Of a stretch of DNA of 54,549 nucleotides, positions 271 to 51,757 are shown piece by piece. Origin of the DNA: a virus (lineage: Duplodnaviria > Caudoviricetes); IMG/VR virus record IMGVR_UViG_3300011126_000071, positions 1-54,549 of that record, one strand, 5' to 3'. The position numbers were made by a program, and so were the translations under genes. Numbering within the stretch: the first letter of the stretch is position 1; every line of letters starts with the position of its first letter. Below the pieces are notes generated by a model. That model saw only the letters and a program-made list of their open reading frames with translations. It had not been told where the DNA came from and did no database searches.

Positions 271-456
271 ATGTACAAAGGAAGAAATGGGAATAGTATC
301 CCAAAAGGTGGTAGTGTATTTAGAGAGATACAAGCAATTAGGGATAGGGAAATAGACAATGAAATGTATTATGAGGGATTAGTTGAAGACTCATTTAATG
401 AGGATATTTTAAAATCATTAAAACGAATATTAATAAAAATAACTAAAGCATCTTAA
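271..456 (+). CDS. Hypothetical protein
   Basis: 61-aa ORF directly after thyA, ending within a terminator hairpin. Confidence 0.55.
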   Translation: MYKGRNGNSIPKGGSVFREIQAIRDREIDNEMYYEGLVEDSFNEDILKSLKRILIKITKAS

Positions 457-474
457 TTAAAGGATGCTTTTTTT
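445..474 (+). terminator. Rho-independent terminator
   Basis: AAAGCATC...GATGCTTT stem followed by a T run. Confidence 0.75.
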
Positions 475-819: not shown

Positions 820-1662
820 ATGGAAAATTCAAATATAAGACCAACTGGTAGAAAAGGTAGAGAAAACCTTGACCGTATGAGAGAACTAATGAAACTTACT
901 CCTATTAAGGAAGGTGTTGATAGGTCTACTGAGGTTGTAACTAAATTAGGACCAGATGGTAAGGCTTATGCTATTATCAAAGAGAATAACCAATACTATA
1001 TTAAAGTATCTGAAAAGACAAGTGGGCTTGTAATGGAAGATTTTAAATACATTGGTGGACTTATGAATAAGAAAAGTCAAGCTTATAATTCATATTCTGA
1101 GGCTGGTAAACAATTAAATATGAAATTCATCAACTTGGCAGAATCTGCTGAGGATAAAGTTTTTAATATTCTTAGAAATGATAACCTTTTAAAAGAATCA
1201 ACTGATATTAACGGTGGTGATGCTAAGGAAGACAAAAAGACTTCTGGTGATAATCTTGCTAGTGGTAGTAAAGTTGGTGTTGAAGATTTCGAAAAGGACA
1301 ATGCTGATGGTACTAAAGATGGTGACACTGGTAAGCATGCTGAGAAGTATGTAATGGAAGATGTTGAATTAACTGAGGAAGAAAAGTATATCGATGAAAT
1401 GCTTGACCCAGTTGGTAAAGAAGATGAGGATGTTGATAATGATGGTGATTCAGATAAGTCAGATGACTACATTAAAAACAAAAGAGATGCTATTGGTAAA
1501 GCAATGAAGAATGAAAACATTAGTATTTCTAAAGCAATGGGTATGATGGATAGAATTATCGATGAATCCACTGGTAGTTCTGAGAAAATCGATGCAATAC
1601 TAGAAAGCCTTTCTGATACTGAGAGACTTAAACTTGCTGATAGGTTAAAAAAAAAAGCATAA
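820..1662 (+). CDS. Putative internal head protein, N-terminal ORF of a probable -1 frameshift pair
   Basis: Acidic 280-aa ORF with many (I/L/V)xE motifs (IKE, LAE, LKE, LTE, IDE, ILE); ends LKKKA* over an A10 run. Confidence 0.7.
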   Translation: MENSNIRPTGRKGRENLDRMRELMKLTPIKEGVDRSTEVVTKLGPDGKAYAIIKENNQYYIKVSEKTSGLVMEDFKYIGGLMNKKSQAYNSYSEAGKQLNMKFINLAESAEDKVFNILRNDNLLKESTDINGGDAKEDKKTSGDNLASGSKVGVEDFEKDNADGTKDGDTGKHAEKYVMEDVELTEEEKYIDEMLDPVGKEDEDVDNDGDSDKSDDYIKNKRDAIGKAMKNENISISKAMGMMDRIIDESTGSSEKIDAILESLSDTERLKLADRLKKKA

Positions 1663-1682
1663 CTGAAACCCATTCTGATGGG

Positions 1683-2921
1683 ATGTCTACTGGTCTGTTT
1701 GCAGATGAGGAAGATGGTTATAATTTAGATAAAAATTTAGAAGAAACAAAATACGTTTTGAAGGGCAGTGCCCCTTCAAGCGATTCTTCGGTTATAGATG
1801 AGCCGTTTGATGAACCAAGTGGTGAAGATGCACCAATGGATGATTTAGGTGGGTTAGATGACTTAGAAGATGCACCAGCAGATGATAAACCATTTGATGA
1901 TGAACCATTTGATGCTGAGGTAGAGGCTGATGAAGATACCGACCCAGCAAAATACATACAACAACTTTCTGGAAAATTAGGTCAATCATTAAGACAATAT
2001 ACTGACGATGAAGGACAACCAGATTTTGACCTTGAGAAATTCGCAGTTAATTCTGTATTATCCGCAACGCATACTGGTGAAATGGATAAAGAAGACCAAA
2101 GAGACATTATTAATAAAGTTAAAGGTTCTGGTAAAGACGATGAAGAAGGTGGTGAAGATATTGATATTGAACTTGATGATGAAGTAGAAACTGATGGTGC
2201 TGATGACGGAGCAGAAGATTTAGACTTCGGTGATGAACCAGTAGAAGAGATTGTAGAAGAGTTACCATTAAATCAAGATAAGGGTACGAATAGATTTGAT
2301 AAGCAATCATATGTAGATGATTATAATTCGATGGAAGATTTTGAAGCTGATGAGCGAAATGGTTATTGGAGAGATGAATATCGTTATGATGATTATTATG
2401 ATGATAATGAAAAAGACGAGGAAGAAGTGCTTAGAGACTTAAGTACTGGTGAATATGATTTAACAACTGAAAATAAATTGCAAGAGTCTAAAAAAAGTCG
2501 TATATTTGTTGATAAAACAAAACTCGTAAAAGATTTAAGACTTATGGAGAATACAGAACCAATGGTTGAACCACAACCAATCACAAAACCATCTACTAAA
2601 CCAGCAAGACCTATGAGGGAGACTGAAAGACCGTTTTCACCTAAACCTAGGAGAACAACAGAAGTACAACCAGACCCAAAGGCAACTGTGTCAGAAGAAG
2701 GTGGTGTTGGTAACTCTGTAATGTTTGATGGTAAGGCTGTTGAGATTAGTTCGTTACAAATTGATGGGGTGGACACTAGAGATTATCCAGACTTTACTGA
2801 TGCTTATTTCACTTATGGTGAATATGTTGATGGGATGGAAATGACTGATGATGAATTAATGAAATTCCAAGAAGAAAATTACGATTTATTACATGATTTA
2901 GTACTTGCAATGTTTCATTAA
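1683..2921 (+). CDS. Acidic putative internal head protein, probably also made as a frameshift fusion
   Basis: D/E-rich 412-aa ORF; its frame is open from 1644 through the A10 run; Pro-rich linker and a compact C-terminal DYPDFTDAYF domain. Confidence 0.7.
   Translation: MSTGLFADEEDGYNLDKNLEETKYVLKGSAPSSDSSVIDEPFDEPSGEDAPMDDLGGLDDLEDAPADDKPFDDEPFDAEVEADEDTDPAKYIQQLSGKLGQSLRQYTDDEGQPDFDLEKFAVNSVLSATHTGEMDKEDQRDIINKVKGSGKDDEEGGEDIDIELDDEVETDGADDGAEDLDFGDEPVEEIVEELPLNQDKGTNRFDKQSYVDDYNSMEDFEADERNGYWRDEYRYDDYYDDNEKDEEEVLRDLSTGEYDLTTENKLQESKKSRIFVDKTKLVKDLRLMENTEPMVEPQPITKPSTKPARPMRETERPFSPKPRRTTEVQPDPKATVSEEGGVGNSVMFDGKAVEISSLQIDGVDTRDYPDFTDAYFTYGEYVDGMEMTDDELMKFQEENYDLLHDLVLAMFH
2477..2508 (+). 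promoter_or_regulatory. Intragenic Bacteroidota-type promoter (ATTG-N20-TATATTTG)
   Basis: Same -7 octamer and 20-nt spacing as the intergenic promoters at 16369-16400, 16707-16738 and 40364-40395; in-frame ATG at 2544. Confidence 0.5.
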
Positions 2922-2922
2922 T

Positions 2923-3354
2923 ATGGAAGAGTTATTTTTAATATATATAAACGTTGTTGGTAAGGATTGGAAAGGTGTTAACATCTATGAATTTATCTTT
3001 TCAGATGACAAAGAAAATATTGATGGTGAGGATTGGGATGCAATACCAGCTGCTGGAAGACCATCACCACCAAATGAAGAACATGTTATTAAGGTGGGTA
3101 AGTTATCAACAGATGATTTTAACTTACATGTAATACAAGAAAGTGATTCATTTTCAGTATGGGATGCTATCGATGGTGTTATTGCACTTGGATGGGAGAA
3201 CATGGATGATTATGATGAATATCCAGAAAAGAGATTAGCATTTCATTTTGGAGAAGATATAAAAAGTGTTGAAGATAAACTTTATGAACACGACCTAATA
3301 TTAGAATATAAAAAAGAAACCGATGTCAAACTTAAAGAAGAAGATACTGAATAA
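2923..3354 (+). CDS. Hypothetical phage protein
   Basis: ATG at 2923, just after the upstream stop, is preferred to the track start at 2905; globular, Trp-containing sequence. Confidence 0.7.
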   Translation: MEELFLIYINVVGKDWKGVNIYEFIFSDDKENIDGEDWDAIPAAGRPSPPNEEHVIKVGKLSTDDFNLHVIQESDSFSVWDAIDGVIALGWENMDDYDEYPEKRLAFHFGEDIKSVEDKLYEHDLILEYKKETDVKLKEEDTE

Positions 3355-4075
3355 ATTACACGAGAATAATAAAGCGGATATGCAAACAACATTTGATAAT
3401 AAAATGAAGGATGCTAAAGATGTTGTTACAAAAACATTAGGTTCTGACACACCGCCAGAAGAAGTTGAGGATATCGCTTCACAATTGGCAGTTGGTAAGG
3501 TAAGTGAAAATGATGATTCAACTGGTAGAGGTATTGGTGCTGGTATGAACCCAGAAGTAGAAGCAGATAAGTATGAAGAATACAGAGCACTTATGGCACA
3601 GTTGGCTGCTGAGGAAGGTGGAGAACAACCAGTTAAAGAAGAAGGGACGTTAACAGAAGGTACTAGTGATTATGATTTAACCAATGGTGGTAATATTGAT
3701 AATATGATGAGAGATGTTATATCAATACTTGGTAAGTATGTTGGTACTCATTCAACTAATAATGGTGCTGTTGCGAATGACAATAGAATTATTATGTATG
3801 ATTTAATAAATTCTGGTAAATTTAAAGGAAAGGTTCAACAAATGTTATCACCACAAGATATGCATAAAGGTTCAAGTGGTAGAGAGGTGCTAACTAATAA
3901 TGAAGGTGAAATGGTTAGATTCTTAAAATCTCTTGGGGTTAATACAGATAATTTAACATTTAGAGCAATGCCTGTAACTGAAAGTACTAATCCTAAGATG
4001 ACTAAGAATAAATTAGTTGAGGCAGTTACTGGTAGAAAGGTTATTAAGACAATTAAAGTAAAAGATATTAAGTAA
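3323..4075 (+). CDS. Putative internal head protein
   Basis: 250 aa with repeated LHE/VSE/VKE/LTE/VTE/LVE motifs; lies in the head operon. Confidence 0.6.
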   Translation: MSNLKKKILNKLHENNKADMQTTFDNKMKDAKDVVTKTLGSDTPPEEVEDIASQLAVGKVSENDDSTGRGIGAGMNPEVEADKYEEYRALMAQLAAEEGGEQPVKEEGTLTEGTSDYDLTNGGNIDNMMRDVISILGKYVGTHSTNNGAVANDNRIIMYDLINSGKFKGKVQQMLSPQDMHKGSSGREVLTNNEGEMVRFLKSLGVNTDNLTFRAMPVTESTNPKMTKNKLVEAVTGRKVIKTIKVKDIK

Positions 4076-5322
4076 TGAAATTAAATTATAGAGAATTAGC
4101 GAAAAAGGCTTTAAACGAAGCAAAGACTCCTAGTAAACAAATTAACGAAAGTATTCGTTACGCTGAGGGTCATGTTGAAAGAATGGACCCAAGATTGGAG
4201 AGAGAACTTAGAGATAGGAAACATTCTTTAGGTGACCATCCTATTTTCCCAGAAAGTGATGAAAAGACATTTGAACAAAAGATTGTTGCTGACAGATTTG
4301 AGGAAGTTATGAAAAATTACAAACAAAAATTTGATTGTGAAACAATAAATAACGATGAAGTTAAAGGTATTCAATATCCACTTGTAAAGGAATGTATGGC
4401 AATAGAAAGTTCCCATAAGAAAGAATTAGAGGATTTAGCCGTTAAGATGATTACAGAGGAATTTAACATACCAGAAGATATGGTTGAAATCACTGCTGAA
4501 TTGGTTGATGTGGTAAACATGGAAGGTACTAAAAAAGAAAAGACCCCAACCTCAGTTGAAATTGAATTCCAAGACCATGACCAGATTAAGAATGCGAATG
4601 AGAATGTATATAAAAGAAGGTTCCTTAATGCTATGATACAAGGTGCTGCTCAAAAATCTTCACATATGTATCATATGGTAAATAAAGATTTAACAGCGAT
4701 AGACCCAAGACTTATGACTAAGTATGGTAAACTTATGGCCGCTGCCGATTACTGTTATTTTGTTGAACCAGATATGCATGATGTAATGAAAGTTGATGAG
4801 ATGGGTGGTAAAACATTTGCTGGTGGTATTGTTAAGGTAACGTTACCAACAGAGCAAAACCCTAAGTGTTCTATACATGCACAAGGTATAGTATTCCCAA
4901 TACTTGTTCATGAATTAGTTAAAGGTATTATGGAAATTCTTTCAGCACATGGTTTACCAGAAGATGATAATATTGCTAAATATGTTATTGGTAAGGCTGA
5001 TTTCTTAGCTGCTGAACCATGGGATATGAGAATGGGACCAGCTTTATATGAGAGATTTACAAAATTAATCAACCCAGAAGACTTCCACTTAAAACATAAT
5101 ATATATACTGAATTGGTAGCATTACCTGTTAATGAATTTAATAGAAGTATGAGAGAGATAATGGCTGGTACTAAGTTAGGACAAGAAATTATAAACGAAT
5201 TAGTTGAAGAGTGTAAGAATAGAATTCAACAAGATGAATATCGTGATGAAATCGGTGATGATGATTCTGATGGATTTTCACTCAATGATTTAGATGGTAT
5301 CGACATCAACGACCTATTATAA
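4075..5322 (+). CDS. Hypothetical phage protein upstream of terminase
   Basis: 415 aa, coupled to the upstream stop (TAATG); N-terminal LNE/INE motifs; KRRFLNAMIQG and ILVHELVKG blocks. Confidence 0.7.
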   Translation: MKLNYRELAKKALNEAKTPSKQINESIRYAEGHVERMDPRLERELRDRKHSLGDHPIFPESDEKTFEQKIVADRFEEVMKNYKQKFDCETINNDEVKGIQYPLVKECMAIESSHKKELEDLAVKMITEEFNIPEDMVEITAELVDVVNMEGTKKEKTPTSVEIEFQDHDQIKNANENVYKRRFLNAMIQGAAQKSSHMYHMVNKDLTAIDPRLMTKYGKLMAAADYCYFVEPDMHDVMKVDEMGGKTFAGGIVKVTLPTEQNPKCSIHAQGIVFPILVHELVKGIMEILSAHGLPEDDNIAKYVIGKADFLAAEPWDMRMGPALYERFTKLINPEDFHLKHNIYTELVALPVNEFNRSMREIMAGTKLGQEIINELVEECKNRIQQDEYRDEIGDDDSDGFSLNDLDGIDINDLL

Positions 5323-5325
5323 AAG

Positions 5326-5351
5326 AAAGGCTCACTTAGTGGGCCTTTTTT
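5326..5351 (+). terminator. Rho-independent terminator
   Basis: AAGGCTCAC-TTA-GTGGGCCTT hairpin followed by a T run. Confidence 0.85.
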
Positions 5352-5388: not shown

Positions 5389-5400
5389 ATAAAAAAGAAT

Positions 5401-7212
5401 ATGCTAACAACGTCCGAAATATTTAAGGAATATGCTAAATGTATACAAGACCCTATATATGCAATAGAAACATATATAGAAACTTTTGATAAAACTCAAG
5501 AGGGGTATGTTCCATTTAAATTATTCCCAAGACAGAAACAGATTGTTAAGGCTTATGAGGATAATAGATATAATTTAGTTACCAAGCCAAGGCAAGCTGG
5601 TATATCTACCACTACACAGGCTTATATGGCCGTTAAAGCTGGATTCGCAGACCCAGATAACCCAGAGGTTATACTTTGTATTGCAAATAAACTTAAATTA
5701 TCACAAAAATTCTTAAAGGGTATTAAGGATTATCTTAAGCAATTACCTAGGTGGATATGGGGACCAGAATTCTATGGTACAGAAGATGCTGAAAAGAAAT
5801 CAATCTTTGTTGTTGATTCTAAAATTGAAATTGAATTACCTAATGGTTCACAAGTTATTGCCGTTGCGACATCGGAAGATGCACTTAGGGGATATACACC
5901 TACTTACTTAGTATTTGATGAGGCTGCCTTTATTGATAATGGCGATGCTGTATATACAGCAGCCATGTCGTCAATATCAACGGGTGGTAAAGTAATACTT
6001 ATTTCCACACCTAATGGTATGGACCCATTATATTATAAAACATACGAACAATCTAAAAGTGGTAAAAATAGATATCACATTGTTGAGATGCGTTGGTTTG
6101 AGGACCCAAGATACAATAAAGACCTTAGATGGTTTAAGAAGATTGAGGATGGTGAGGACATTATTGAGAATGAAGTTGAATTTACCGTACCTTCATATAC
6201 TAAGAGAGTTGAGGATGGTTGGAAACCAACATCTACATGGTATGAAAATATGTGTATGGCCCTTAATAATAACGCTAGAAAGATTGCACAAGAGTTAGAT
6301 GTGTCATTCCTAGGTTCTGGTGGTAACGTAATTGATGATGAAACTATTGATTTCCACGATAAGAAGAATGTTCGTGAACCTAAGTTAACTAGTGGTGTTG
6401 AGGAAGAATTCTGGATGTGGGAAGAACCAATAGAGGGACATCAGTACATTTTAGGGTGTGATGTCAGTAGGGGTGATGGTGAGGATAGTTCAACTATTGT
6501 AATTATTGATTTCACAACTATGGAACAAGTATTTGAATACCAAGGTAAGATTCAACCAGATTTACTTGCTTATCATGTATTTGAATATGGTAACATGTAT
6601 AATGCTTATACAGTAGTGGATATTGCTGGTGGTATGGGTGTATCAACTGTACTTAAGTTGATTGAGATGAATTATAGTCAAAAGTTATTACATTACGATA
6701 AACCAGCCACTGGTACGGGTATATTACCAAATAAGGCTAGATTAAATAGAGTTAAGAACAAGGATAAAATGCCAGGCTTCAACGCCAACGGTGTTCGTCT
6801 TCCTATGATAGCAAACTTAGAAAGAGTACTAAGAGAAGATGCTGTTAAGGTTAGGTCAAGAAGGCTTGTATCGGAAATGAAAACATTCATTTATAAAAAT
6901 GGTAGACCAGACCACATGGATGGTTACCACGATGATTTACTTATGGCATTAGGTATGGCCTTATGGGTATTAGAATACTCATTTAAAAACCTAGAAAAAG
7001 CAAATGCACAAAATAAAGCAATACTTAGTAGTTGGAGTACTGGAAGTTCTGGTGCGAAGGACCCTAAAAAGACTGCTTACGATGGTGGATTTGTATCAAA
7101 TAACAATAAAGGGAAAACTACCGCACCCCGACCAAAATTTAATCCAAATGTGTCTAAGAATATGCAAGACCCAAATGGTGATTATATGTGGTTATTTAGC
7201 GGAACAAGATAA
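5401..7212 (+). CDS. terL: Terminase large subunit (T4 gp17-like)
   Basis: KPRQAGIST Walker A-like motif, LVFDEAAFI Walker B, ISTPNG coupling motif, and nuclease motifs GCDVSRGDGEDSS and HDDLLMAL. The ATG at 5401 is preferred over the TTG at 5350, which lies in the terminator. Confidence 0.95.
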   Translation: MLTTSEIFKEYAKCIQDPIYAIETYIETFDKTQEGYVPFKLFPRQKQIVKAYEDNRYNLVTKPRQAGISTTTQAYMAVKAGFADPDNPEVILCIANKLKLSQKFLKGIKDYLKQLPRWIWGPEFYGTEDAEKKSIFVVDSKIEIELPNGSQVIAVATSEDALRGYTPTYLVFDEAAFIDNGDAVYTAAMSSISTGGKVILISTPNGMDPLYYKTYEQSKSGKNRYHIVEMRWFEDPRYNKDLRWFKKIEDGEDIIENEVEFTVPSYTKRVEDGWKPTSTWYENMCMALNNNARKIAQELDVSFLGSGGNVIDDETIDFHDKKNVREPKLTSGVEEEFWMWEEPIEGHQYILGCDVSRGDGEDSSTIVIIDFTTMEQVFEYQGKIQPDLLAYHVFEYGNMYNAYTVVDIAGGMGVSTVLKLIEMNYSQKLLHYDKPATGTGILPNKARLNRVKNKDKMPGFNANGVRLPMIANLERVLREDAVKVRSRRLVSEMKTFIYKNGRPDHMDGYHDDLLMALGMALWVLEYSFKNLEKANAQNKAILSSWSTGSSGAKDPKKTAYDGGFVSNNNKGKTTAPRPKFNPNVSKNMQDPNGDYMWLFSGTR

Positions 7213-11659: not shown

Positions 11660-12373
11660 ATGTCAAGAAGATTAAACGAAGATATTAAATTACTTAAGGC
11701 TGGCCAAACTGGTTTCGGGGTCATGATTGAAAATGATGCGGGTTATATCGACCCAAATGATTCAAGGAACCAAGAGTTTGTAAATGAGGTTACTAAAATG
11801 GCCTCTGGTGGTATACCAATGGTTGAACCATTAGTAGTTACTGTAGTATTACAGAAGTGGGGAGTTAAAAATAGAAATGGTAGAGTATACCCAGAACGTA
11901 TTCTTAAGAATCAAGCTAAGGCTTACAACGAATTAATACAAAACAAATCAGCGTTAGGTGAATTAGACCACCCAGAGTCATCAATTATATCTGGTGATAG
12001 AGTATCACATAATATCACTAAAATATGGTGGGAAGGTAAAACACTTATGGGTGAGATGCAAATCAATACCACTTTAGGTTTTATTAATATGGGTATTTGT
12101 TCAACTAAAGGTGATGAGGTTGCTAACATGCTTAGACATGGTTGGAGAATTGGAGTATCATCTAGAGGTGTTGGTACATTAGAAGAGGATTATGAAGGTA
12201 ATGCAATTGTACAAGATGATTTTGAATTGATAGGGTGGGATGTTGTTACGGCACCATCGACACCAGGTTCTTGGATATTTGCAAATTCTAAAGATGCCCA
12301 ACCATTTACTGAATCAAGAATTATTGAAAACAAAGATTTAGATGAGGGGTTAGATAATTTCTTAATGGATTAA
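11660..12373 (+). CDS. Prohead core protein protease (T4 gp21-like)
   Basis: KNRNGRVYP, ALGELDHPE, GVSSRGVG and WDVVTAPSTPGS motifs. Confidence 0.95.
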   Translation: MSRRLNEDIKLLKAGQTGFGVMIENDAGYIDPNDSRNQEFVNEVTKMASGGIPMVEPLVVTVVLQKWGVKNRNGRVYPERILKNQAKAYNELIQNKSALGELDHPESSIISGDRVSHNITKIWWEGKTLMGEMQINTTLGFINMGICSTKGDEVANMLRHGWRIGVSSRGVGTLEEDYEGNAIVQDDFELIGWDVVTAPSTPGSWIFANSKDAQPFTESRIIENKDLDEGLDNFLMD

Positions 12374-12510
12374 AATAAAAAAAAATTAACTAAAATAATA
12401 AAAATATAGTTTTTTGTGAAAATAGATTATATTTATTGTTAAATGGCATTATATTTTATTGCCGACCTAAAAAAGAAAGATAAAACTTTTAAAAAATAAA
12501 CAAAACTAAA

Positions 12511-14010: not shown

Positions 14011-15786
14011 ATGTCACAATCACAATTATTAAATTCTGGACAAGTTGGGAACATTGGTTTAAACCACATGAAAGCGGTTAGACAACAAACTCAACAAAAA
14101 TGGAACTCTTTAGGATTCTTAGAAGGTCTTAAAGGTCATGTTAAGGAGAACATCGCTCAATTATATGAGAACGAAGCATCTTACTTATTAAACGAAGCTA
14201 CTTCTGCGGCTGATTCATCTGGTTCTTTCGAGACAGTTGTATTCCCAATCGTAAGAAGAGTATTCTCTAAATTATTAGCTAACGATATCGTTTCTGTACA
14301 AGCTATGAATATGCCAATTGGTAAATTATTCTTCTTCGTACCTCAAACTTCATCTAGAGTTAATGCTGCTGGTGAGGCTGGTAACGTTCACGTTGACCCT
14401 CAATACTCTGCTCACACATCTATGTCTGACCAATTACCAGACTGTGTTGTAGGTGCTGGTTGTAACCCAACAGTATTCGAAGCTAAAAACTTATACGATA
14501 TCTATTACAATGATGGATTATTCGATAACTCTAAAGGTACTGCTACAATCACTATGATGAACGCTGTTCCTGTTGCTATGGATTCTAACGGAAACTTTTC
14601 TGAAACGACTTCTTATGCTACAGCAACTGACGGTACTGTTAGAAATGGTATGTTAAGAGTATCTGGATTCTCTTCTACAAACAAAGGTAGATTAACAGGA
14701 CCAGATGGTAATGAAATGGATACTGAGTCTTTCTTAGCTTCATTAAAAGTTACTTCTGCTAATGCTGTTATTGACCCAGATGGTAATACAATTATCGCTG
14801 CTGGTGCTGAGGTACCATTCAGATTAGTTACTCAAAAGTATGGTAAAGGAATCGTTGCTTATGACGATATCTGTGATGCTGCTGGTGAGTTATACATTGA
14901 CTTAGACTTAAGCCACCCAGTTGATTCTAACGGTACATCTACATTTGATGGTTACGTTGGTGCTGGAACAGGTTTAACTGTTGATACAACAGCGTTTGAT
15001 GCTTCTTGGGCAACTTATGCTAGTCTTGAATTAGAAACTGAAATGGGAGAAGTATCTTTCAAACTTGATGAAGTTGTTGTTTCTGTTGAAGAAAGAAAAT
15101 TAAGAGCTACATGGTCTCCAGAATTAGCACAAGATGTTAGTGCATTCCACAACATTGATGCTGAGGCTGAATTAACAGCTATGTTATCTGAACAAGTTGC
15201 TGCTGAAATCGATAGAGAAATCTTAAGAGATTTAAGAAAAGCTGCTGCATGGACTCTTAGATGGGATTACAACGGTTGGAGAAAAGCTTCTACTGCTGCA
15301 AGTCCATATACACAAAAGGATTGGAACCAAACTTTAATTACTAAAGTTAACCAAATCTCTGCTCAAATTCACAAGGCAACACTTAGAGGTGGAGCTAACT
15401 ACATCGTAGTTTCTTCTGAAATCTCTGCTGTGTTCAATGACCTTGAGTACTTCCACGTAAGTGATGCAAGTCCAGAGCAAGACCAATATAACATGGGTAT
15501 TGAAAGAATCGGTTCACTAGGTGGAAGATTCCAAGTATACGCTGACCCTTATTCTCCATGGTACTCTATGATTATCGGACACAAAGGGAAGTCGCTTCTT
15601 GACACAGGATATATCTACGCACCGTACGTACCGTTACAACTTACGCCTACAATGTACAATCCATTTAACTTCGCACCAGTGAAGGGGATTATGACAAGAT
15701 ACGCTAAGAAAGTTGTTAACAACAGATTCTACGGTCATGTTAGATGTGATGGTGTTCCTCACTTCAACCTTAATGAATTAAGATAG
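14011..15786 (+). CDS. Major capsid protein (T4 gp23-like)
   Basis: FPIVRRVF...DIVSVQAM, RKLRATWSPELAQD, AEIDREIL, GYIYAPYVPL and KGIMTRYA motifs. Confidence 0.96.
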   Translation: MSQSQLLNSGQVGNIGLNHMKAVRQQTQQKWNSLGFLEGLKGHVKENIAQLYENEASYLLNEATSAADSSGSFETVVFPIVRRVFSKLLANDIVSVQAMNMPIGKLFFFVPQTSSRVNAAGEAGNVHVDPQYSAHTSMSDQLPDCVVGAGCNPTVFEAKNLYDIYYNDGLFDNSKGTATITMMNAVPVAMDSNGNFSETTSYATATDGTVRNGMLRVSGFSSTNKGRLTGPDGNEMDTESFLASLKVTSANAVIDPDGNTIIAAGAEVPFRLVTQKYGKGIVAYDDICDAAGELYIDLDLSHPVDSNGTSTFDGYVGAGTGLTVDTTAFDASWATYASLELETEMGEVSFKLDEVVVSVEERKLRATWSPELAQDVSAFHNIDAEAELTAMLSEQVAAEIDREILRDLRKAAAWTLRWDYNGWRKASTAASPYTQKDWNQTLITKVNQISAQIHKATLRGGANYIVVSSEISAVFNDLEYFHVSDASPEQDQYNMGIERIGSLGGRFQVYADPYSPWYSMIIGHKGKSLLDTGYIYAPYVPLQLTPTMYNPFNFAPVKGIMTRYAKKVVNNRFYGHVRCDGVPHFNLNELR

Positions 15787-16738: not shown

Positions 16739-16757
16739 TGTAAATCCCGTTTTTTTT
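16720..16757 (-). terminator. Rho-independent terminator overlapping the next promoter
   Basis: AAAAACGGGA...TCCCGTTTTT inverted repeat. Confidence 0.8.
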
Positions 16758-24421: not shown

Positions 24422-25567
24422 TTATGCGTTTGTTTCTACGTTAGTTTCTTTAGGTTTTATCATTGAAGTAAATTCTTTTTTTCTATTGGTAACAAGTGTA
24501 CCATAAACTTCTTCAATTGCCTTTCTTTGTTTATCCATTGAATATTCACCATTTGTAGTTTCCATACTGTCAAGAATATCTTGTGGTACTGAATCTTCAA
24601 ACCAAACCTTCATAAATGTTCCAACTAATTCTGGAATGTTAATAGTTGTATTAGTCCAAACACCATTATTTAATAATGTTGTTTCACCATTTTCTGTTGT
24701 ACTTTCCATCCATTCTGGAATCATATTTGGAATTTTACCAATTACTGGTGTTCCAGATTTCATAGCCTCAAGTGGGAATGTTCCGAAACCAGATTGGTCA
24801 TCAATCCATACCGCCAAACAAGACTTACCTAATTCTTCTGCAAATTGTGCTTTTGGAATACCTCTAAGTTCTTTGAATGTTACAAATTTATAGATTGGGA
24901 ATTGTAAGTAGAACGCATTAGCGATTTTCTTAGCATCACCATGATTCCTAGTAAGGATTGTAACTACTGGTGTTTTAGGTTTCTCACTTGGTTTAAACAT
25001 GTCAGAAATCCCTACTGGAATAATATGTGTGTTAATACCTTGGAATAGACTAGTAACATAGTTAGCTTGCTTTTGTGATGTTGTAATAACATCATAGAAA
25101 CCAAAATCAGTGTGCCATTTCTTACCGATTGGTAACAACTCTAACAAATAATCATAACTTTGTGAGAAAACAATCTTCTTACATGGGAATTGTTTTACTT
25201 GGTCCATGATATTAGCGAAAATTTCTGGAATGATAATAAAATCAGAAGGGTTCACATTTAATTGTTGTCCTTCTATTGAGATGTGAGGTAGGTTTGCATA
25301 TTCTTCACCTAACCAATCAGCAATACCCATACTAGTTTCATCACCACGTAATTTATAGTCATCTTTCTCGTGCATGATAAATGCTTTATATCCCAATTCA
25401 TTTAAAGTTTTTACGTGTTCGTAAATGTTAGCGACACCAGCAACTGGGTTACCTTTAGTGTCAAGTGTAAAGAAGTAAAATGAAAAATCTTTATTATCTA
25501 ATTTAGATAATAATTCACCGATTTGTTCTTCTTGTGTTTTTACAGGTTTGTTTGTTTCTTCTGCCAT
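24422..25567 (-). CDS. GT-B (family 4-like) glycosyltransferase
   Basis: GVANIYEHVKTLNELGY, IIIPE, GFGTFPLEAMKSGTPVIG. Confidence 0.85.
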   Translation of the reverse strand: MAEETNKPVKTQEEQIGELLSKLDNKDFSFYFFTLDTKGNPVAGVANIYEHVKTLNELGYKAFIMHEKDDYKLRGDETSMGIADWLGEEYANLPHISIEGQQLNVNPSDFIIIPEIFANIMDQVKQFPCKKIVFSQSYDYLLELLPIGKKWHTDFGFYDVITTSQKQANYVTSLFQGINTHIIPVGISDMFKPSEKPKTPVVTILTRNHGDAKKIANAFYLQFPIYKFVTFKELRGIPKAQFAEELGKSCLAVWIDDQSGFGTFPLEAMKSGTPVIGKIPNMIPEWMESTTENGETTLLNNGVWTNTTINIPELVGTFMKVWFEDSVPQDILDSMETTNGEYSMDKQRKAIEEVYGTLVTNRKKEFTSMIKPKETNVETNA

Positions 25568-25587
25568 TTTTTTTTATTTAATTATTA

Positions 25588-51722: not shown

Positions 51723-51757
51723 CAAATAAAATAACAAAAAAAAACAATTAAAACACA

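Follow-up and report, generated by a model that had tools for sequence, protein, structure and literature searches.

The DNA analysed here, referred to as the window in the following, is the whole stretch of 54,549 nucleotides (nt) of the virus record IMGVR_UViG_3300011126_000071 (Duplodnaviria; Caudoviricetes), which, judged by the proteins it encodes, is a distant T4-like phage. On its plus strand two open reading frames (ORFs), ORF A and ORF B, with the products A and B, follow each other closely (Table 1). The 3' end of ORF A carries a homopolymer of ten A residues (A10) within the terminal codons ...GAT AGG TTA AAA AAA AAA GCA TAA, and two A_AAA_AAA heptamers, as looked for in a -1 ribosomal site, lie in phase in this run at 1647-1653 and 1650-1656. 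ORF B is in the -1 frame relative to ORF A, and its ATG at 1683 is located 21 nt past the stop codon of ORF A. If the mRNA gains one extra A, or if a ribosome slips by -1 in the run, an A-B fusion of 700 amino acids (aa) arises, in which the predicted shifted reading is ...LKKK-SITETHSDG-MSTGLF.... A sequence-only reading of the window had drawn attention to the position of the A10 run, to the ending of ORF A and to the -1 frame of ORF B being open from 1644; all of this can be read directly, and the shifted reading proposed there was reproduced. The tryptic peptide SITETHSDGMSTGLFADEEDGYNLDK of the predicted product would be a marker of -1 translation upstream of ATG 1683.

Table 1. Features of the A/B locus and of its surroundings in the window.
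Feature	Position	Strand	Remarks
ORF A (short product)	820-1662	+	280 aa; C-terminal end LKKKA-stop
TAG in the -1 frame	1641-1643	+	upstream limit of the shift window; -1 frame open from 1644 only
A10 run (predicted slip site)	1647-1656	+	wobble A of Leu TTA, then three AAA Lys codons
Linker S-I-T-E-T-H-S-D-G	1656-1682	+	read solely after the shift; I-T-E at 1659-1667
TAA, zero-frame stop of ORF A	1660-1662	+	downstream limit of the shift window
Hairpin CCCAT-TCTG-ATGGG	1669-1682	+	5 bp; RNAfold and terminator-like scan; starts 12 nt after the run
ORF B	1683-2921	+	412 aa; -1 frame relative to ORF A; C-terminal part of the predicted fusion
Whole predicted recoded gene, A-B fusion	820-2921	+	279 + 9 + 412 = 700 aa
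Terminator-like hairpin	445-470	+	ahead of the A/B operon; consensus scan only
Terminator-like hairpin	5323-5351	+	after ORF 4075-5322, closes the A/B operon; consensus scan only

Relatives of the locus were collected by scanning viral contigs. Query A returned two loci and query B was represented by the best 80 of 93 relatives, which gave a total of 82 loci on 80 contigs. A run of at least nine A's ends the A homologue in 78 of the 82 loci (72 with A10, three with A9, two with A11 and one with A12), and at each of these 78 run-bearing loci the B homologue is found in the -1 frame, at none of them in frame. The loci with A9, A11 and A12 likewise preserve the -1 relation. Two of the four loci without a scored run are cut by the end of the contig, and the other two (L073/L074) are natural in-frame fusions. 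The zero-frame stop ends 4-21 nt past the run in all 78 loci, mostly at 6 nt, and the -1 frame is open just 3-36 nt ahead of it. In several loci the -1-frame stop abuts the run, and the shift must therefore fall within the run. The suggestion of a programmed -1 shift, ribosomal or transcriptional, that leads to a 280-aa protein and a fusion of about 700 aa is thus supported by the 78 of 82 loci that combine A9-A12 with a next ORF in the -1 frame.

The same picture emerged at the protein level, where the sequence-only reading had proposed to look for homologues ending in KKK-x-stop over a poly-A run: KKK plus 0-5 residues forms the C-terminus in 116 of the best 120 A homologues, the four exceptions including two truncated ends and two shorter Lys runs. 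In the alignment K277-K279 of A are almost invariant. The A family comprises 1257 related protein clusters (E<=0.001) and the B family 508.

Furthermore, the run is conserved at the nucleotide level beyond what the protein needs. The window and 76 contigs (77 sequences) yielded 61 distinct 300-nt contexts with strongly diverged flanks, around which a consensus TT-A10-G is apparent, with T at position -1 in 51 of the 61 contexts and G after the run in 58. The run is usually opened by the wobble base of a varying codon (Leu TTA, Val GTA, Ser TCA, Pro CCA, Gly GGA or Ile ATA). The three Lys codons of the run are AAA in all 61 contexts, as compared to 1357 of the 1728 Lys codons elsewhere in the A ORFs (0.785), a usage at which three consecutive AAA codons would be expected in about half of the sequences. 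Selection acts on the bases of the run and not solely on the encoded protein.

The stretch between the run and ATG 1683 was then considered. In the 11 loci that share the spacing of the window, with 26 bases between run and ATG, the variation of the linker sits on the third codon positions of the -1 frame (entropy 1.05 versus 0.43 and 0.36). S/R-[LIV]-x-E-T-K... is the conserved form of the -1 peptide, which often leads directly into E-T-K-Y-K-L-K. The comparison shows this stretch to behave as a sequence translated in the -1 frame. In 41 of the 61 contexts no ATG, GTG or TTG is present ahead of the conserved K[YF]x[LIVM]K motif of B, and in 13 of the 61 there is none ahead of its KPFDDEPF core. 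The ATG at 1683, which had been noted before as abutting the hairpin, is present in the window but is not a general feature, its equivalent being ATA in L002/L003 and missing in other clades, that is in many relatives.

Four in-frame A-B fusions were found among the longer relatives of A, namely P0072, P0241, P0242 and P0243. P0072 (648 aa) reads ...EALKKKSLTETKADGMSTGLF..., which is precisely the predicted shifted product, and P0241 (750 aa) reads ...DESDKKSLIETKADGMSTGLF... across the junction. L073/L074 contain a single ORF (1038-2489, 483 aa) without a run, in which an A-like N-terminus is in frame with the B core. By this comparison the A-B fusion is shown to be, at the level of predicted proteins, a real protein of the family. 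The natural fusions show that A joined to B is a functional form of the protein, with in-frame genomes being rare.

With respect to base composition, the G+C content of the window is 32.8%, and the A10 run alone is not significant because 0.5-0.7 A runs of at least ten are expected from composition. The run is, however, the sole A/T run of at least eight within any gene of the window, which is 94.8% coding, whereas the remaining four such runs (12377-12385, 51736-51744, 16750-16757 and 25567-25575) are all intergenic, in the 5.2% of non-coding sequence. It looks as if slippery runs are avoided inside the genes of the phage. Two features exceed chance, the placement of the run as the only one inside a gene and its conservation across relatives. 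As a separate observation, several of the intergenic A/T runs directly precede start codons as A-rich leaders.

Part of the stretch is contained in six public sequencing runs, all represented by contigs and none recorded as RNA, of which four were aligned. Positions 1406-2060 are covered by contig X2, which derives from a second run of the probable source sample, and positions 1000-1670 by contig X4, which comes from an independent study and represents a relative of about 94% identity. Both are gap-free at the A10 position, and therefore both carry A10.

Overall, the comparison identifies the A10 run as a selected, programmed slip site and ORF A together with ORF B as one predicted recoded gene. 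We regard programmed recoding that yields both A and A-B as very probable.

Concerning the mechanism, slippage of RNA polymerase is the more likely alternative when compared to a ribosomal shift, and we consider it reasonably, though not strongly, probable that recoding occurs by polymerase slippage adding one A. Polymerase slippage is favoured because every run has a length of at least nine, corresponding to the RNA-DNA hybrid, while the ribosome needs only seven; because no flanking RNA structure or upstream element is conserved; because the other A/T runs of at least eight in the window are all located outside genes; and because the bacterial poly-A precedents match. All 78 runs are 9-12 A's long, the downstream ORF lies in the frame that is reached by one extra base, and the zero frame is soon closed.

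By this route, the nascent A tract would at times slip back by one base while the host RNA polymerase transcribes the T10 template, and a fraction of the mRNAs would thereby contain A11. Normal translation of the A10 mRNA would halt at TAA 1660-1662 and yield the 280-aa protein A, translation of the A11 mRNA would run through the linker into ORF B and yield the 700-aa A-B, and the run would set the ratio of the two products. Published bacterial A9-A11 sites give roughly 20-60% shifted product, and poly-A cassettes of 7, 9 and 11 A's gave 10, 40 and 63% (PMC3711429). For dnaX genes with A10 the shift is attributed to transcriptional realignment (PMC3711429), and for the A11 run of tssM1 the slippage of 20-25% was shown on RNA to be transcriptional (PMC4256274).

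The surroundings of the run were searched for RNA elements. No conserved RNA structure was found near the run: the mean z was -0.56 on the upstream side, where 7 of the 61 contexts fell below -2, and -1.02 on the downstream side, where 16 did. A hairpin or pseudoknot 5-9 nt downstream, or an upstream Shine-Dalgarno-like element, as stimulators of -1 ribosomal shifts, is not conserved across the 61 contexts, such a stimulator not being obligatory. Rfam contained no frameshift element for the region, giving sub-threshold snoRNA-like noise only, and a consensus scan of the plus strand revealed no promoter-like or terminator-like site between A and B. The small hairpin that the sequence-only reading had described behind the run does exist according to RNAfold and the terminator-like scan, but it is unconserved in the relatives and its sequence encodes T-H-S-D-G. 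It was rejected as a stimulator and is probably not part of the signal.

Several points weigh against programmed polymerase slippage as a full account of the locus. A run of at least nine A's offers an in-phase heptamer whatever its register, the comparative evidence for recoding fits a ribosomal shift equally well, with the same protein as the result, and ribosomal and transcriptional slippage may both contribute. The 61 contexts are related, so that the independence of codon usage and its formal probability are overstated. The length of the run was judged from assembled contigs, and the fused P0072 would require either a genome with A11 or a slip in the assembly. Finally, the Met of MSTGLF is kept within the window's own clade, where some separate initiation of B is possible.

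Among the rival explanations, -1 programmed ribosomal frameshifting survives best and is regarded as possible, although the less probable one. The tRNA-Lys in the P and A sites would slip on A_AAA_AAA of an unaltered A10 mRNA, possibly aided by the stop codon two codons downstream. This is in line with A_AAA_AAA being one of the listed -1 motifs (PMC3711429) and with the zero-frame stop that follows the run closely at all 78 loci. On the other hand, seven A's would suffice for the ribosome, yet not one locus has fewer than nine. Neither a downstream hairpin or pseudoknot nor an upstream Shine-Dalgarno-like element is conserved, the hairpin of the window begins 12 nt past the run and is itself unconserved, and run lengths of this kind are reported to make bacterial RNA polymerase slip (PMC3711429, PMC4256274).

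It is very unlikely that A and B are separate neighbouring genes, with B being translated from its own ATG 1683, perhaps coupled to termination of A, and with the run being a Lys-rich tail in an AT-rich genome. The short distance between the stop codon of A and ATG 1683, the Met retained there in the clade of the window, an A10 run that is not improbable by composition and the gene callers, which list A and B apart, would all agree with such an arrangement. It is contradicted by the 41 of 61 contexts without a start codon ahead of the conserved N-terminal motif of B, by the ATA at the start position in L002/L003, by a variation pattern of -1 coding upstream of the ATG and by natural in-frame fusions that cross the junction. 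The Lys codons of the run, all AAA and preceded by a wobble A against the background of 0.785, and the -1 relation at 78 of 78 loci argue in the same direction. Least likely of all is an artefact or a switch at the DNA level, i.e. a true A11 single gene hidden by a homopolymer error or phase variation in which slippage during replication flips genomes between A10 and A11. Homopolymers do invite errors and cause DNA polymerases to slip (PMC3711429), the fused P0072 would fit an A11 genome and the run length is known from contigs, but A10 was found in 72 of 78 loci from separate assemblies with none in frame, the A9, A11 and A12 loci keep the -1 relation and hence are not flipped states, the contigs from the second run and the independent study are gap-free at the run, and if there were a switch, assemblies in either state should have been encountered. 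The two outcomes named beforehand as speaking against recoding, an A11 single gene and loss of the run in homologues, were not seen, since the contigs carry A10 and the homologues retain the run.

Returning to programmed recoding, the junction of the predicted fusion contains a further conserved element. The remark that the shifted peptide includes a cleavage-type I-T-E motif holds for the family as a whole, in that all 61 contexts contain [LIVM]-x-E no more than 15 residues past their Lys run, as compared to 507 of 1744 control windows (29%) from the rest of B. Both an x-X-E motif at a conserved place and a phage-encoded T4-type protease, two sequence features looked for in prohead protease substrates, are present. 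The exact cleavage motif in T4 is L/I-x-E. The conserved junction [LIVM]-x-E suggests a putative prohead protease site: A-B would enter the prohead via its A part, and after assembly the T4-type prohead protease (11660-12370) would cut at the junction motif and separate A from B. This more speculative model draws some support from the conservation of [LIVM]-x-E, from the specificity of T4-type head proteases, which cleave after Glu at x-X-E motifs, and from the way in which proteins are directed into proheads by N-terminal propeptides 10 to >100 residues long (PMC5694885, PMC9026906).

The type of mechanism proposed here, poly-A slippage or a -1 shift that sets the proportion between a short and a long product, is already known; what is notable at this locus is the breadth and exactness of conservation. 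In dnaX, slippage yields the shorter product, whereas slippage at A10 here would yield the longer fusion. The dnaX genes of Thermus thermophilus (A9) and of the Chlorobi type (A10) resemble the A/B locus by an in-gene run of 9-10 A's, two products that share their N-terminus, conservation of the run among homologues and no need for an elaborate RNA stimulator (PMC3711429). However, dnaX is a cellular replication gene, while A/B is a phage-borne family for which we infer the mechanism. In tssM1 of Citrobacter rodentium (A11) and the Shigella type III genes mxiE, spa13, spa33 and mxiA a poly-A/T run is likewise located just ahead of a stop codon, the downstream frame is regained when the mRNA acquires an extra base, which gives 15-55% of the long form, and the ratio of the forms matters for the assembly of a large machine (PMC4256274). 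In contrast to the near-universal run of the A family, the tssM run is rare among homologues and amounts to the 'rescue' of an interrupted gene; the proteins are unrelated.

In the tail assembly chaperone G/GT of phage lambda and in A2-type capsid genes it is the ribosome that shifts by -1, on heptamers such as G_GGA_AAG. Similar to the situation at A/B, a gene in the morphogenesis region gives a short and an extended product in a set ratio (PMC5009743, PMC10885494, PMC4256274). G/GT is located between tail tube and tape measure, whereas the A/B pair lies upstream of the large terminase and its signal is a homopolymer of 9-12. The Gag-Pol shift of retroviruses and totiviruses is ribosomal and uses an RNA stimulator. 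Gag/Gag-Pol serves as an analogy only: through a small share of -1 fusion product, a cargo could be attached to a carrier made in abundance, and the junction would contain a protease site; there is no homology, and carrier, cargo, incorporation and cleavage are conjectural for A/B. As in the head proteins of T4 and giant phages with propeptides removed by a protease (capsid targeting sequences; the long propeptides of SPN3US), a T4-type prohead protease is encoded and an [LIVM]-x-E motif is found at the junction, although in the present case the 'propeptide' would comprise an entire protein of 280 aa, which is produced on its own as well. Taking these analogies further, it is conceivable but rather doubtful that in this large group of uncultured T4-related phages, some with contigs of >350 kb, slippage on A10 provides a Gag/Gag-Pol-like dosing, with A as an abundant carrier of the prohead core and a minority of A-B loading the acidic, modular B, which the protease would free at the junction [LIVM]-x-E, perhaps so that it is delivered together with the DNA. 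The literature, the coverage of which excluded subscription journals, yielded no account of this gene family or slip site.

Regarding the proteins themselves, the conserved N-terminal domain of A (~1-125) is followed by a middle part that is acidic and disordered and by C-terminal helices, and the model of A shows a small alpha/beta N-terminal domain at a mean predicted local distance difference test (pLDDT) score of 58. B is mostly disordered with acidic stretches and contains a conserved three-helix core at about aa 65-150 (KPFDDEPFDA...IINKVKG). The C-terminal domain of B (aa 345-412; window 2715-2918), with strands and two helices, is modelled with pLDDT >95, and no Foldseek match to the PDB was obtained for it at E<=0.001. 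In many B homologues this domain is exchanged for other modules, and long B-like proteins (P0063, P0079, P0111 and others) are extended by further modules, among them a basic KGKTVKLGKP...NMEIKRDNPERRKSFRARHKC block and stretches rich in Cys. A number of proteins (P0246, P0249, P0253, P0254, P0257, P0260 and P0262) gave long matches to the A query, some of them with Pfam PF11450 or PF19846. In several lineages, namely L004/L005 (3452-4001), L014 (3794-4001), L030-L034 and L041, including L033, 100-540 extra coding bases in the -1 frame separate the run from the conserved start of B, and the X4 contig has about 414 extra bases after window ~1665-1670. It seems that new modules can be taken up directly downstream of the slip site.

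The sequence-only reading had referred to A and B as head proteins. Neither protein matches a named family or fold, and this assignment would be a guess from their position. There was no Pfam match for A or B, PHROGs gave families without assigned function, on A residues 82-238, and PDB profile searches gave no match for A. The sole PDB profile match of B, 8wpe_D (E 0.0012), was judged not meaningful. Among viral models Foldseek retrieved uncharacterised proteins only, in the PDB it gave no match at E<=0.001, and the ESM Atlas contributed hypothetical viral clusters only. The best Z of the model of A in VIA-align was 5.1, within the noise range stated for the tool. WGR domains of PARP proteins were among the best structural rows for the N-terminal domain of A (aa 32-125; window 820-1194), with Z values of 4.0-4.2 that are within the noise range, and are mentioned as a lead only. 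When A, B, the N-terminal domain of A and the B core were compared to a cultured phage collection by tblastn, no match was obtained, a search in which the low-complexity filter may mask the acidic parts.

An acidic motif of A, LDPVGKEDEDxDNDGDxDxSDxYxKxRRxAIGKAMK (ORF A aa ~183-230; window 1405-1515; L083 3021-3851), has 67% identity to a hypothetical protein of T4-like cyanophages, encoded by S-SSM7 gene 195 and present in 16 other records, and underlies the PHROG matches of A. It looks like a mobile acidic module and is possibly metal-binding. The cyanophage gene pair S-SSM7 195/196 has no A run, gene 196 is unrelated to B, and the pair is uninformative on recoding.

Besides the large terminase (TerL, 5398-7209), the window encodes a portal (phrog_213), the prohead protease introduced above, with a phrog_207 match at 1.1e-40, and a major head protein (phrog_138), the nearest cultured capsids being those of Flavobacterium phage immuto and Microcystis phage Mel-JY01 at ~38-42% identity. 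The best phrog_138 match of the major head protein (14011-15786, 591 aa) covers residues 333-568, and the protein may have a long N-terminal extension. The gene order ts - ORF 526 - A - B - ORF 2923 - ORF 4075 - TerL is kept in nearly all loci. No tape measure gene was found near the A/B pair, which does not lie between tail tube and tape measure as expected for a tail chaperone of the G/GT type and gave no PHROG or Pfam chaperone match. The two terminator-like hairpins listed in Table 1 bracket ORF 526 through ORF 4075, six genes of conserved order upstream of the large terminase, and this region may be one transcription unit. Within it, ORF 2923-3354 and ORF 3323-4075 overlap by 32 bases (3323-3354); ORF 3323 is present in 7 of the 82 related loci, its neighbours in 69-80.

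Taken together, the 1257 A-like and 508 B-like clusters, which are listed as two unrelated hypothetical proteins, probably represent one recoded gene, the 700-aa product of which is missed by gene callers in every genome of the group. The loci form a clean natural data set, in which run lengths stay at 9-12 and the -1 relation is constant, while the flanks vary freely and RNA structure is absent, and this set should be useful for defining how run length and flanking bases set the slippage rates of bacterial RNA polymerase during phage infection. If the fusion is cleaved at the junction motif, this would give a hint at how these phages load a modular cargo protein. If the dosing by slippage considered above proves true, the A10 run and its counterparts could be among the most widespread programmed transcriptional slippage sites seen in DNA phages.

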